Assembly: GCF_003334405.1 (NCBI RefSeq)
Contig: NZ_QOWM01000021.1
Source of the DNA: Escherichia coli
GTDB taxonomy: Bacteria > Pseudomonadota > Gammaproteobacteria > Enterobacterales > Enterobacteriaceae
Length of the DNA: 53,345 nt
Strand: one strand, 5' to 3'
This document shows positions 23,640 to 34,731 of this stretch, one piece after another. The notes under the pieces are model-generated. The model did not search any database and was not told where the DNA came from. It saw nothing but the letters and a program-made list of their open reading frames with translations. Within the stretch, counting starts at the first letter, position 1. The number at the start of each line of letters is the position of its first letter. The translations under genes and the position numbers were made by a program.

Positions 23640-25043
23640 TTATAACGTTACGGAAGCCGTTTTTTCTTCTGTCGCCATCTCTTTATTTTTGCGTTGGTTG
23701 ATTTCCTCAATAATCAATGCAAACCGTTTTTCATTGAGTGTGTAAAAGAATCCCATCGTCAATGCAGCAATAATTGCCAGTGCACAAGGCCAGATAAAAA
23801 TGAGCTGACGCAAACCCTGTAATGTCGCATCGCTTTGCGCGATGTTGGGAACATAACCAATTTGCGTCAGCATAATGCCTGGCAAGAAGCCAGCAAGTGC
23901 GGCAGAAATTTTACGAAAGAAGGTATAACCGGTATAAACAGAACCTTCGGCACGAATACCGGTTTTCCATTCACCGTAATCTACGGTATCTGGTACCAGT
24001 GCCCAGTTCAGGCTGTTTACAAAGGCCGTGCCAAAAAAGGCGACACAAGAGAACATGACGAAAGTGAAAGAGTTACTTCCCCAGAAATAATTCAGTATAT
24101 CACCCACCGCCCACAGCACCATGCCAGCCAGATAAACCTGTTTTTTACCAAAACATTTTACAGTTAATGGCACCAGTAATACGCCGATGAGGATGCATCC
24201 CATACTGAAGAATCCCATCCACGACAATAAATTAATATCATTCAGCACATACTGGGTGTAATAGACCTGAATCGCCAGTTTGATATTAAATGCCGCCAGG
24301 GTACACAAGTTAGCAATGCATAAAACCAGCAATGGCGGATTCCGAAATATCGCGCAAAATGATTTGAGAATACTGGCTTTATGTCCGGTTGGCGTTGTGT
24401 CCACATAATGCTCTTTGACGCCTCTGTAGCACAGCATCATAAAAATAAAGCCGCCAATGGAGAACATAAGTGCCGCACAGGCATAACCGACGGTTGAGTC
24501 AGAAAAAAGCGACTGCAACGGAATAAACGCCACGGTACAAATCAATAGCCCTATGGTTGCACCACCCTGGCGGTAAGCCGCGAGCTGCGCGCGCTCATTC
24601 GGGTTTTTGGTAATTGCCGGGATCATCGCACCATACGAGCAGTTCATCAGACTGTATGAAAGTCCAAACATCATAAACAGCGCGGTGGCAATCGTCGTTT
24701 TAACCGGCAAACAAAAGGTGGTGGCGATAAACTGGAGCGTTGCAATTAACGCCGCCGGAACCGCTGCATATAAAATAAAGGGACGAAATTTGCCTTTAGG
24801 CCCAATATTTTTCCGCGAGTCGAGTAAAAATCCGGTGAGCATATCGGTAAACGCGGTAAAAAACTTCGCCACCAGAAAGATAATCCCGCCATAGTAAGCA
24901 GGCATCCCTAATTCATCGGTATAAAATTTGAGGAGATACAGAGTACCGATGCAGAGCATTAAATTCGAACCGACGTCGCCCATACCATAGGCGATTTTTT
25001 CCCGCAGATTCAGTTTTAATGTCAGTGGATTATGGTCAGACAT
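23640..25043 (-). CDS. yihO: GPH-family transporter YihO (putative sulfoquinovose / sulfoquinovosyl-glycerol importer)
   Basis: Hydrophobic ORF with GDVGSNLMLCIGTLYLLKFYTDELG; start taken at MSDHNPL (25043), track start is 25049; paralogous to the adjacent yihP. Confidence 0.85.
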   Translation of the reverse strand: MSDHNPLTLKLNLREKIAYGMGDVGSNLMLCIGTLYLLKFYTDELGMPAYYGGIIFLVAKFFTAFTDMLTGFLLDSRKNIGPKGKFRPFILYAAVPAALIATLQFIATTFCLPVKTTIATALFMMFGLSYSLMNCSYGAMIPAITKNPNERAQLAAYRQGGATIGLLICTVAFIPLQSLFSDSTVGYACAALMFSIGGFIFMMLCYRGVKEHYVDTTPTGHKASILKSFCAIFRNPPLLVLCIANLCTLAAFNIKLAIQVYYTQYVLNDINLLSWMGFFSMGCILIGVLLVPLTVKCFGKKQVYLAGMVLWAVGDILNYFWGSNSFTFVMFSCVAFFGTAFVNSLNWALVPDTVDYGEWKTGIRAEGSVYTGYTFFRKISAALAGFLPGIMLTQIGYVPNIAQSDATLQGLRQLIFIWPCALAIIAALTMGFFYTLNEKRFALIIEEINQRKNKEMATEEKTASVTL

Positions 25044-25085
25044 AATCACTCCTTATAACGCCCCGCAGGGCGTCGTTTATTATTA

Positions 25086-26471
25086 TTACGCCGTGCGTTT
25101 ACGGGCTTCTATCTCTTCCACAATGCGGACATACATCTTCTCGTTCAGGCTGTAGAAGCAACCCATCGCCACAATGGTGACTACCGCCAGTGCGCTTGGG
25201 TAGATGAAGATCAACTGGCGTAACCCTTCAATGGTGTGGTCAGCCTGTGCGACGTTCGGCACATAGCCAATTTGCGTCAGCATCCAGCCGGGGAAGAAAC
25301 CAGCCAGCGCCTGAGACACTTTGCGAAAGAAGGTAAAACCGGTGTAGACCGTTCCTTCCGAACGCACGCCGGTGCGCCACTCGCCGTACTCGACGGTGTC
25401 GGAAACCAGCGCCCAGTTCAGGCTGTTAACAAACGCTGAGCCAAAGAACGCCAGGCAGGAGAACGCCACGAAGCTGACCGAACCGCCGCCGAAGAAATAG
25501 TTGAGCAGATCGCCCAGCACCCAAATCAGCAGGCCGCCGATATAAACTTTCTTCTTGCCAAAACGTCTGACTGAGGCAGGCATCAGGAATACGCCGATGA
25601 AAATACAGCCCATGCTGAAAAATCCCATATACGACAACAGGATGGGATCGTTAAGCACGTACTGGGTGTAATAGACCTGGATGGCGAGCTTGACGTTAAA
25701 CGCCCCTAAAGTGCAGAGGTTGGCAATGCACAGAATGAACAGCGGGCGGTTACCCGCAATTGCGCGGAAAGATTGCAGCAGGCCCGGCTTTTGCGCCGGA
25801 TTAGCAGGCTGGGTTTCGACATAACGCTCTTTCACGCCCGAGTAGCAGATCCACATAAACAGCAGGCCAAACAGTGAAAACAGCGTGGCGGCGAAGATAT
25901 AGCCAAGTTGCTGATTACCTTCGATAAGATTCATAACTGGCACGAATCCCACCGTGCACAGCAGCAGGCCCAGCGTAGCGCCGCCCTGACGCCATGCCGC
26001 CAGTGAGGCGCGTTCGTTGGGGTTTTTGGTGATAGCGGGAACCATTGCGCCGTAGGAGCAGTTCATCATGCTGAAAAACAGTCCGTAAAGCATAAACAGA
26101 ATAGTGGCCATCACCGTTTTACCGGTGACATCAAACGGTGTGCCGACAAAGTTGGCGATCGCCAGTAAGGTGACCGGGAATGACGCATACAGAATAAAAG
26201 GACGGAACTTACCTTTTGGACCGATCTTGCGTCGGGAATCCAACATAATGCCGGTACCCATATCGGTAAACGCAGTAAAGAATTTTGAAATCAAAAAGAT
26301 AATGCCGCCATAGGTGCCTGGCAGCCCCAGAACGTCGGTATAAAACTTCAAAAGATAAAGCGTACCGATATCCAGCAGGATGTTAGAGGCCAGGTCGCCA
26401 ATACCGTAAGAGAGTTTCTCTTTAAAGGGCAGGCGTAAAGTTGCTGGATCTTCCGTTGTGATGTGACTCAT
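25086..26471 (-). CDS. yihP: GPH-family transporter YihP
   Basis: ORF-track frame trimmed to ATG 26471 (MSHITTEDPATLRLPFKEKLSYG...), which has SD GGAGA upstream; GDLASNILLDIGTLYLLKFYTDVLG paralogous to YihO. Confidence 0.85.
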   Translation of the reverse strand: MSHITTEDPATLRLPFKEKLSYGIGDLASNILLDIGTLYLLKFYTDVLGLPGTYGGIIFLISKFFTAFTDMGTGIMLDSRRKIGPKGKFRPFILYASFPVTLLAIANFVGTPFDVTGKTVMATILFMLYGLFFSMMNCSYGAMVPAITKNPNERASLAAWRQGGATLGLLLCTVGFVPVMNLIEGNQQLGYIFAATLFSLFGLLFMWICYSGVKERYVETQPANPAQKPGLLQSFRAIAGNRPLFILCIANLCTLGAFNVKLAIQVYYTQYVLNDPILLSYMGFFSMGCIFIGVFLMPASVRRFGKKKVYIGGLLIWVLGDLLNYFFGGGSVSFVAFSCLAFFGSAFVNSLNWALVSDTVEYGEWRTGVRSEGTVYTGFTFFRKVSQALAGFFPGWMLTQIGYVPNVAQADHTIEGLRQLIFIYPSALAVVTIVAMGCFYSLNEKMYVRIVEEIEARKRTA

Positions 26472-33912: not shown

Positions 33913-33945
33913 AATGCCAGGGTGATGGTTTTTCGAGGAATTTTC

Positions 33946-34731
33946 ATGAGCCTTACCGAACTAACCGGTAACCCGCGGCACGACCAACTCCTCATGCTGA
34001 TCGCCGAGCGTGGGTATATGAATATTGATGAGCTGGCAAATCTGCTGGATGTCTCCACGCAGACGGTCCGCCGGGATATTCGTAAATTAAGCGAGCAAGG
34101 CCTGATTACGCGCCATCACGGTGGCGCGGGTCGGGCTTCCAGCGTCGTTAATACGGCGTTCGAGCAGCGTGAGGTTTCGCAAACCGAGGAAAAAAAAGCG
34201 ATTGCCGAAGCGGTGGCAGACTATATTCCTGATGGTTCAACAATATTTATCACCATTGGTACGACTGTTGAGCATGTTGCCCGGGCGTTACTTAACCATA
34301 ATCATTTGCGGATAATCACCAACAGCCTGCGTGTGGCGCATATTCTTTACCACAACCCGCGCTTTGAAGTGATGGTGCCCGGCGGTACGTTGCGCTCTCA
34401 TAATAGCGGGATCATTGGCCCTTCAGCGGCGTCCTTTGTGGCTGATTTTCGTGCTGATTATCTGGTAACAAGCGTTGGGGCGATTGAGAGCGATGGCGCG
34501 TTGATGGAGTTTGATGTAAACGAAGCTAACGTGGTGAAAACGATGATGGCGCACGCGAGAAATATTCTGCTGGTCGCCGATCACACTAAGTATCATGCTT
34601 CGGCGGCGGTTGAAATTGGTAACGTGGCACAGGTCACTGCGCTCTTTACCGACGAGCTGCCGCCCGCTGCGCTAAAATCACGCTTACAAGACAGCCAAAT
34701 TGAAATCATTCTTCCCCAGGAAGACGCGTAG
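33946..34731 (+). CDS. yihW: DeoR-family transcriptional repressor CsqR (YihW)
   Basis: ORF-track frame trimmed to MSLTELTGNPRHDQLLMLIAERGYMNIDELANLLDVSTQTVRRDIRKL (ATG 33946), 261 aa; DeoR HTH plus sugar-binding C-domain. Confidence 0.85.
   Translation: MSLTELTGNPRHDQLLMLIAERGYMNIDELANLLDVSTQTVRRDIRKLSEQGLITRHHGGAGRASSVVNTAFEQREVSQTEEKKAIAEAVADYIPDGSTIFITIGTTVEHVARALLNHNHLRIITNSLRVAHILYHNPRFEVMVPGGTLRSHNSGIIGPSAASFVADFRADYLVTSVGAIESDGALMEFDVNEANVVKTMMAHARNILLVADHTKYHASAAVEIGNVAQVTALFTDELPPAALKSRLQDSQIEIILPQEDA

Follow-up and report, generated by a model that had tools for sequence, protein, structure and literature searches.

The 53,345-nucleotide stretch of Escherichia coli DNA analysed in this study (the window) almost certainly carries the long form of the yih cassette, in which ompL-yihOPQRSTU is divergent from yihV-csqR, as a system for sulfo-EMP sulfoglycolysis. 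This reading is based on the intact genes, the proteins identical to those of K-12, and the catalytic and sulfonate-pocket residues, which are all in place; the enzyme activities, the induction by sulfoquinovose (SQ), and the binding of CsqR were taken from the literature for K-12. Nothing against the sulfo-EMP reading was observed in the sequence. The cassette is an already known system, real but ordinary. Indeed, the earlier note had called it established and not novel, and its pathway, structures, and regulator are all found in the literature.

Gene content and identity to the K-12 cassette

Nine long ORFs tiled positions 23640-34731 in the ORF list; of these, seven are minus-strand and two plus-strand. 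The ends of this range, which had been given as the extent of the cluster, corresponded exactly to the stop codons of yihO and csqR. All nine of the genes listed for it were found; the published cluster has ten members, and the tenth, ompL, lies just outside the range and had been left out. The ten genes and one repeat are as follows.

22880-23572, minus strand: ompL, outer-membrane porin (NCBIfam equivalog NF007434, 472 bits, cut-off 288; identical to K-12)
23640-25043, minus strand: yihO, GPH-family MFS symporter, presumed SQ/SQ-glycerol importer (TIGR00792, GPH:cation symporter, 529 bits; ORF intact)
25086-26471, minus strand: yihP, second GPH-family MFS transporter (TIGR00792, 537 bits; ORF intact)
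26517-28553, minus strand: yihQ, GH31 sulfoquinovosidase (PDB 5AED/5AEG/5OHT, E. coli YihQ, 1634 bits, residues 1-678)
28752-29654, minus strand: yihR, SQ mutarotase of the aldose-1-epimerase type (NCBIfam equivalog NF011719, 617 bits, cut-off 251; identical to K-12)
29727-29764, no strand: G-rich dispersed palindromic repeat CCCCTCGCCCCTTTGGGGAGAGGGTTAGGGAGAGGGG between yihR and yihS (read from the sequence)
29792-31033, minus strand: yihS, isomerase converting SQ to sulfofructose and also making sulforhamnose (PDB 2RGK, E. coli YihS, 993 bits, residues 1-413)
31050-31928, minus strand: yihT, class I sulfofructose-1-phosphate aldolase (PDB 7AG1, 646 bits, residues 1-292)
31952-32848, minus strand: yihU, NADH-dependent sulfolactaldehyde reductase (PDB 6SM7, 640 bits, residues 1-298; NF012005)
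33016-33912, plus strand: yihV, sulfofructose kinase of the PfkB/ribokinase fold (PDB 7AG6, 666 bits, residues 1-298)
33946-34731, plus strand: csqR (yihW), DeoR-family repressor (DeoR/GlpR family matches; identical to K-12 CsqR)

When the RefSeq start codons were used as the gene bounds, each of the nine genes (the eight from yihO to yihV plus csqR) showed an ATG start, a terminal stop, and no internal stop. The encoded proteins were of 467 (YihO), 461 (YihP), 678 (YihQ), 300 (YihR), 413 (YihS), 292 (YihT), 298 (YihU), 298 (YihV), and 261 (CsqR) amino acids. The claim of the earlier note that all nine genes are present and intact was thus borne out, and the frameshifts or premature stops that it had named as contrary evidence were found in none of them. 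Its functional labels agreed with the RefSeq annotation of near-identical DNA and with the NCBIfam equivalogs where these exist (YihQ, YihR, and YihU), and YihO and YihP fitted the GPH symporter model. Alignment to the characterised YihQ, YihS, YihV, YihT, and YihU, the check that it had proposed, gave full-length matches to E. coli crystal structures. For yihR, a longer version of the ORF with 308 amino acids starts at 29678. A plus-strand ORF of 281 amino acids at 26757-27602 was rejected as a gene; it is contained entirely within yihQ in antisense orientation, has no RefSeq counterpart, and was regarded as a shadow ORF.

Many E. coli chromosomes whose annotation uses the same gene names matched a 12.5 kb stretch at approximately 100% identity. 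As a query, this stretch gave a median of 4 match places per genome, and the 38 bases of the CCCCTCGCCCCTTTGGGGAGAGGGTTAGGGAGAGGGG repeat were matched elsewhere in E. coli records, a plasmid among them. Over 14.5 kb (22000-36500), only three single-base differences from K-12 ER2796 were observed. Those at 26733 and 27308 were both synonymous, in yihQ codons 607 and 416, and the third, G at 32869 against T in K-12, was located in the yihU/yihV spacer, 21 bp upstream of the yihU ATG. Since two of the differences are synonymous and one is intergenic, a protein change was ruled out and all ten proteins are identical to their K-12 counterparts. None of the best-matching complete genomes showed the A at 26733, and their closest match to yihQ still has one mismatch.

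The yih sulfo-EMP pathway of E. coli K-12 was reportedly described by Denger et al. in 2014. The long form of K-12 MG1655 (ompL-yihOPQRSTUVW) has the same content, order, orientation, and spacing as the window and occupies the same site between yihN and yihX (Sharma et al. 2021, PMC8006165; Kaznadzey et al. 2025, PMC12608037).

We also considered that the cluster might be a cryptic or decaying remnant, present but non-functional in this strain. In favour of this, approximately 28% of complete E. coli genomes are without full-length yihQ, and IS insertions or partial deletions occur within the cluster of some strains. Here, however, the genes were free of frameshifts and internal stops, IS elements were absent, the sole non-coding difference (32869 G) was common to strain VR50, and the proteins are those of K-12, for which growth on SQ and induction of the cassette have been reported. 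Decay in this strain is thus scarcely credible, and a functional sulfo-EMP cassette is the reading that we retain.

Enzymes, transporters, and the proposed route

The residues R301, W304, D405, D472, and Y508 were all present in YihQ. We take D405 to be the nucleophile and D472 to be the acid/base, roles for which Speciale et al. in 2016 are said to be the source. The sulfonate pocket of YihQ, R301-W304-Y508, is defined in PMC8006165. YihS, which also matched PDB 7AG4, contained the catalytic H248 and H383 together with the sulfonate pocket R55-Q362-Q379, and YihT, which also matched PDB 7AG7, contained the Schiff-base residue K193, the pocket residues R253 and A26, and also S226 and S227. YihU scored 603 bits with the NCBIfam equivalog NF012005 (cut-off 348) and retained the pocket residues R123, N174, and S178. 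In YihV, the KRN sulfonate triad K27-R138-N109, the catalytic Asp244 (GXGD), and the GAGDVF motif were present. The catalytic and sulfonate-pocket residues of the core enzymes, as defined in PMC8006165, were all found.

These pockets also bear on a proposal of Kaznadzey et al. 2018 (PMC5816610), according to which the main or an additional role of the cluster would be a second, lac-independent lactose route, with YihQ as the hydrolase and YihS, YihV, and YihT acting on galactose- or tagatose-type intermediates. In that study, the cluster was reported to resemble a lactose cassette in Bacilli, with the yihV, yihT, and yihS promoters activated on lactose, and YihT is distantly related to tagatose-bisphosphate aldolases (NF009498, 137 bits, below the cut-off of 184). 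However, the core enzymes show kinetic selectivity towards sulfonated substrates and possess dedicated sulfonate pockets (PMC8006165), which are complete here, and gel-shift experiments lent no support to lactose as an effector of CsqR. We therefore regard a lactose role as very unlikely and sulfosugar degradation as the function.

A dedicated transport set was also present, consisting of the OmpL porin and two GPH-family permeases that passed the equivalog and TIGR00792 models, respectively. OmpL belongs to the published 10-gene cluster and is induced on SQ. The substrates and individual roles of YihO and YihP are suggested by family homology and context, and YihP may serve either for the export of 2,3-dihydroxypropanesulfonate (DHPS) or as a second import route.

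In the proposed route, SQ-glycerol or free SQ would cross the outer membrane via OmpL and the inner membrane via YihO and/or YihP. YihQ would hydrolyse the glycoside to alpha-SQ, YihR would convert alpha-SQ to beta-SQ, and YihS would form sulfofructose from beta-SQ, with sulforhamnose as a side product. Sulfofructose would then be phosphorylated by YihV with ATP, and YihT would cleave sulfofructose-1-phosphate via a Lys193 Schiff base to DHAP, which would enter central metabolism, and sulfolactaldehyde. The latter is expected to be reduced with NADH by YihU to DHPS, which would be exported. In K-12, every gene of the long cassette was induced at least 32-fold on SQ (PMC12608037). Judging from its genes, the strain of the window should be able to use SQ, the abundant sulfosugar of plant sulfolipid, and to supply other microbes of the gut or soil with DHPS.

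The yihUTSRQPO and yihVW operons of Salmonella enterica are orthologous to the cluster. The structures of Salmonella YihS and YihT matched the window proteins over their full length (926-930 and 563-565 bits, respectively), and the Salmonella yih proteins were estimated from bit scores to be approximately 10-15% diverged. These operons were once annotated as capsule operons, a historical assignment cited in PMC7922415, and their expression during infection has been reported. Nevertheless, a yihW mutant in which yihU was de-repressed 100-fold gave no higher O-antigen capsule yield, and deletion of the yih operons left virulence unaffected (PMC7922415). The proteins of the window are, moreover, catabolic enzymes with demonstrated sulfosugar chemistry. 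A capsule role for the yih cluster can accordingly be given almost no weight beside the sulfo-EMP reading.

Strain variation at the yihN-yihX site

In a set of 5426 complete E. coli genomes, 3887 (72%) had full-length yihQ and 1327 (approximately 24.5%) carried a different, inverted eight-gene cassette between yihN and yihX. These frequencies agree with the description of the cluster as accessory-like. The long/short cassette polymorphism is already described in the literature (Kaznadzey et al. 2025, PMC12608037), and the short form is not present in the window. The strain-variable unit extended from approximately 22846 to 34762 and included ompL. Its left junction lies in the following feature.

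22794-22872, no strand: REP/BIME-type palindromic repeats downstream of yihN, which contain the variable segment's left junction

In the alignment, identity to strain GF50 stopped at approximately 22845, inside the GCCGGATG...CATCCGGC repeats, and the right junction was located in unique DNA at 34763. The search of the window detected no tRNA gene, no integrase or transposase was seen in the cluster, and none of the genes annotated by RefSeq from yihL to fabY is a mobility gene. Flanking direct repeats of the kind expected for a mobile island were not seen either. The GC contents of ompL (40.8%) and yihO (45.0%) were below the window mean of 50.4%, and those of yihP through csqR were 48.5-55.6%. 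A classic mobile island was rejected, as there was no tRNA gene and no annotated mobility gene and the low GC was limited to ompL and yihO. A fixed site at which recombination in the flanks swaps alternative cassettes is the better description of the locus.

The short form, carried by E. coli Nissle 1917, ST131, and others, occupies the same chromosomal site as the long form in the window. Its DeoR regulator, kinase, reductase, and aldolase showed 72, 67, 73, and 67% identity, respectively, to the window homologues, and its kinase, aldolase, and reductase retained the sulfonate-pocket residues. Unlike the window cassette, it is inverted and without ompL, yihO, yihP, yihQ, and yihS; the places of these genes are taken by one that resembles Zn-dependent polyol dehydrogenases, by two MFS transporters that are unrelated, and by a distant aldose-1-epimerase. 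It was published as the "truncated short form yihTUVW", and it was not induced by SQ (Kaznadzey et al. 2025, PMC12608037).

The short cassette appears not to be truncated, and it alone, outside the window, offers a new lead. We tentatively propose that the yihN-yihX site might be a two-allele metabolic switch, although we consider this rather doubtful. The allele of the window would serve SQ glycosides, and the other would comprise a full pair of operons with eight genes, whose dehydrogenase, two anion-type MFS carriers, and epimerase feed a different sulfonated substrate into the lower sulfo-EMP steps. If this is borne out, the short cassette could represent a second sulfoglycolysis entry route in ExPEC and Nissle-type strains. 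The two forms also mark niches: the long cassette is linked to plant and environmental lifestyles, and the short form is reportedly enriched in pathogenic strains.

CsqR and its control regions

Both M1 of CsqR and the internal Met25 start (34018) were present. Two forms of CsqR have been published, and the Met25 start gives the short form, CsqR-s. The control regions contained the following features.

32849-33015, no strand: divergent yihU/yihV control region, the main CsqR target (motif searches; published gSELEX and EMSA target)
32871-32881, plus strand: TGTCACTTTTT in the yihU/yihV spacer
32904-32914, plus strand: TGTCTGTTTTT in the yihU/yihV spacer
32939-32949, minus strand: TGTCAATTTTT in the yihU/yihV spacer
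32952-32962, plus strand: CGTCACTTTTT in the yihU/yihV spacer
33896-33906, plus strand: copy of TGTCACTTTTT at the yihV 3' end, putatively an autoregulatory site for CsqR, 40 bp upstream of the csqR ATG

The yihU/yihV spacer has been published as the single strong genomic target of CsqR, which is released by SQ, SQ-glycerol (SQGro), and sulforhamnose (SR), and binding of CsqR to the yihV/yihW region has also been published. According to the proposed mechanism, CsqR would bind cooperatively to the spacer and upstream of csqR when substrate is absent, repressing both arms, and these three compounds would relieve the repression. The 53 kb window contained four matches to the motif TGTCNNTTTTT, all of them inside the two known CsqR target regions, against 0.9 matches expected; none of 100 shuffles reached four. 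It is plausible that TGTCNNTTTTT is the CsqR operator half-site.

The central block of the yihU/yihV control region was kept in the alternative cassette and in Salmonella primer sequences, and the Salmonella control region shares the block CTGTTT(T/G)TGATCGTATTTGTAATTTAT with the window. When one mismatch was allowed, no copy of GTCACTTTTT was found in the kinase/reductase spacer of the alternative cassette; the only copy with one mismatch in that cassette lay where the csqR-upstream site would correspond. In published EMSAs, the same kinase/reductase spacer cross-binds K-12 CsqR. Because a spacer without GTCACTTTTT is bound, the exact 10-mer cannot make up the entire operator, and it was rejected as the full CsqR operator on its own. 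The conserved central palindromic block, at 32904-32949, is probably part of the operator, the exact sequence of which is the only point of possible novelty in the window's own cassette.

A consensus scan of the region for sigma-70 promoters gave 11 sites against 13.7 ± 3.8 expected; as this was no enrichment, the promoters were taken from published mapping instead. Terminator-like hairpins were in mild excess (23 against 13.9 ± 3.7 expected), almost all of them within coding sequence. An Rfam scan of the whole window detected no RNA families inside the cluster, and the matches outside it were CsrC, Spot 42, ES222, STnc370, naRNA4, and the fdoG SECIS.

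Integrity and function of the sulfoquinovose cluster

The earlier note described an intact sulfo-EMP cluster, yihO-yihW (yihW is csqR, encoding the DeoR-family repressor CsqR). A mechanical ORF listing of 21000-37500 gave long ORFs without a break, including those of the cluster:
23640-32848, minus strand, seven long ORFs
33010-34731, plus strand, two long ORFs

When 23000-35500 was compared with 5426 complete E. coli genomes using megablast, the chromosomal matches were approximately 100% identical, and the genes on them bore the names yihOPQRSTUV and csqR, with yihQ and yihS annotated as sulfoquinovosidase and sulfoquinovose isomerase, respectively. 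The nine-gene cluster is therefore real. Furthermore, each gene, read from its RefSeq start codon, began with ATG, ended with a terminal stop, and contained no internal stop; accordingly, the check for frameshifts and premature stops proposed in the earlier note was negative. Its interpretation as an established system, not a new one, is also correct and was already known.

Only three bases in 22000-36500 differed from E. coli K-12 (strain ER2796):
26733, yihQ codon Y607 (TAT/TAC), synonymous
27308, yihQ codon L416 (CTG/TTG), synonymous
32869, 21 bp upstream of the yihU ATG, G in the window and in E. coli VR50, T in K-12

Since two of these are synonymous and one lies upstream of yihU, each of the ten proteins, OmpL through CsqR, is the version of K-12, the strain in which the sulfo-EMP pathway was established. 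A cryptic remnant is excluded, because the proteins are intact and identical to those of K-12. At 26733 the window has A (TAT), and K-12 and VR50 both differ there; this A appears to be either a private SNP or an error of sequencing, because the best yihQ match among the 5426 genomes, judged by bit scores, kept one mismatch. Position 32869 and the first copy of TGTCACTTTTT are 2 bp apart, and the G/T difference might influence the binding of CsqR or the expression of yihU.

We also checked the catalytic and sulfonate-binding residues defined from published structures (PMC8006165), and no listed residue was missing. The five enzymes are full-length matches to crystallised E. coli proteins, with these residues present:
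YihQ, 5AED; R301, W304, Y508, D405, D472
YihS, 2RGK; R55, Q362, Q379, H248, H383
YihV, 7AG6; K27, N109, R138, D244
YihT, 7AG1; K193, R253, A26
YihU, 6SM7; R123, N174, S178

OmpL, YihQ, YihR, and YihU passed NCBIfam equivalog models, and YihO and YihP passed a GPH:cation symporter model. In the published pathway, sulfoquinovose (SQ) or SQ-glycerol enters through OmpL and the GPH permeases, YihQ hydrolyses the glycoside, YihR is the mutarotase, and YihS converts SQ into sulfofructose, sulforhamnose being formed on the side. YihV then phosphorylates sulfofructose, YihT cleaves the phosphorylated product to DHAP and sulfolactaldehyde, and YihU reduces the latter to 2,3-dihydroxypropanesulfonate for export; the assignment of import versus export between YihO and YihP is presumptive. 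Lactose degradation was proposed as the role of the yih genes (PMC5816610), but this reading is weakened by the strict selectivity of the enzymes for sulfosugars (PMC8006165) and by published gel shifts in which lactose had no effect on CsqR. Similarly, the O-antigen-capsule role drawn from Salmonella and cited in PMC7922415 is weakened, since 100-fold de-repression did not raise the capsule yield (PMC7922415).

Alternative cassettes at the yihN/yihX site

The end points given in the earlier note, 23640 and 34731, coincide with the yihO and csqR stops; however, ompL was left out and has to be added. Approximately 28% of the complete genomes matched the 12.5 kb query only from 34763 onward. In the junction alignment, identity ended at about 22845, within REP-type repeats just after yihN, and returned at 34763, 32 bp past the csqR stop; the strain-variable unit therefore contains ompL. 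This agrees with the description of the yih cluster as ten genes (PMC8006165), and SQ was also shown to induce ompL (PMC12608037), in line with this boundary.

E. coli JJ1886 (ST131) and GF50, which both match the query only from 34763, carry a different, inverted eight-gene set at the same site, lying between yihN and yihX in GF50:
JJ1886 locus, 3369-11927, alternative cassette, equivalent to window 22846-34762
GF50 locus, 3369-11927, alternative cassette, equivalent to window 22846-34762

Using cassette-specific probes, we found full-length yihQ in 3887 of the 5426 genomes (72%) and the alternative Zn-ADH/MFS segment in 1327 (24.5%); neither was intact in the remaining 3-4%. The cluster is thus accessory-like, as had been noted, meaning that one fixed site carries alternative cassettes. 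A mobile island was rejected, because no tRNA gene was found in the window, no mobility gene is annotated in the cluster in RefSeq, and low GC is limited to ompL and yihO. The long/short polymorphism was already published in 2025, with the other allele named a "truncated short form (yihTUVW)"; the text makes no mention of the four further genes of the swapped segment (PMC12608037).

The enzymes encoded by the alternative cassette are a sugar kinase, an aldolase, a YihU-like reductase, a Zn-dependent alcohol dehydrogenase, and an aldose-1-epimerase; a DeoR regulator and two MFS transporters complete the eight genes. For the four genes that both cassettes share, protein identity to the window is 67-73%, and these proteins keep every mappable sulfonate-pocket and catalytic residue, with all sulfonate-pocket residues kept in the kinase, aldolase, and reductase. 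The Zn-dependent, polyol-dehydrogenase-like protein fell under every NCBIfam cut-off; among solved structures, RspB, ketose reductase, and threonine dehydrogenase came closest to it. Neither transporter belongs to the GPH type, their types being metabolite/H+ and aromatic-acid/H+ symporters, and the epimerase shares just 27% identity with YihR. Because the sulfonate-pocket residues are kept and the pattern of extra genes fits, we hypothesize from sequence that this cassette may not be a remnant but encode an intact, variant route for sulfosugars whose entry substrate differs. In Nissle 1917, however, it was reported not to be induced by SQ (PMC12608037).

JJ1886 is without yihL, yihM, and yihN, typA directly adjoining its alternative cassette (JJ1886 locus 1-3400 versus window 19724-22789), whereas GF50 keeps them, which points to a second presence/absence polymorphism beside the yih site.

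Control regions and putative CsqR sites

CsqR represses its own gene as well as the divergent promoters of yihU and yihV, and the effectors that release it are SQ, SQ-glycerol, and sulforhamnose; the control regions are bound by cAMP-CRP, too (PMC5816610). Across the 53 kb window, the 10-mer GTCACTTTTT occurs without mismatch exactly three times:
yihU/yihV spacer, two copies
40 bp upstream of the csqR ATG, one copy

All four window matches of the looser pattern TGTCNNTTTTT fell within the yihU/yihV spacer and the csqR-upstream region, against 0.9 expected, and four were reached in none of 100 shuffles. CsqR binding was demonstrated in both regions (PMC12608037, PMC8006165), and PMC7922415 cites three sites for YihW within the yih promoter region of E. 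coli. TGTCNNTTTTT is thus a putative CsqR half-site. An imperfect palindrome (32904-32949) has two of the motif copies as its arms and lies within a block conserved in the control region of the alternative cassette and likewise in Salmonella primer sequences (PMC7922415). The spacer of the alternative cassette has no close copy of GTCACTTTTT; accordingly, this 10-mer cannot be the whole operator story.

Other features of the window

Two elements adjoin each other between yihR and yihS:
29727-29764, dispersed G-rich palindromic repeat CCCCTCGCCCCTTTGGGGAGAGGGTTAGGGAGAGGGG, yihR-yihS spacer
29681-29698, hairpin CAGCCTCCCGTGAGGCTG, adjoining this repeat

The repeat also had matches elsewhere among E. 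coli records, a plasmid included. Between fabY and fdhE, 37955-39100 is a low-GC stretch (39% in 38000-38999). Abrupt divergence from VR50 starts at about 38461, and JJ1886 and GF50 are likewise unlike each other in gene content there, which makes the stretch a further variable spot.

The following features lie outside the cluster:
9166-9284, 10313-10566, 17495-17602, 19492-19560, 12810-12887, and 53158-53320, known small/repeat RNAs (Spot 42, CsrC, ES222, STnc370, and three REP-derived naRNA4 copies)
41611-44661, minus strand, formate dehydrogenase alpha-subunit gene, as two ORFs (41611-44025 and 44074-44661)

The latter gene is named fdnG in RefSeq and lies within the fdoGHI operon. We rejected a pseudogene, since an in-frame selenocysteine TGA and an Rfam SECIS_3 element at 44021-44079, exactly at the ORF split, explain the interruption.
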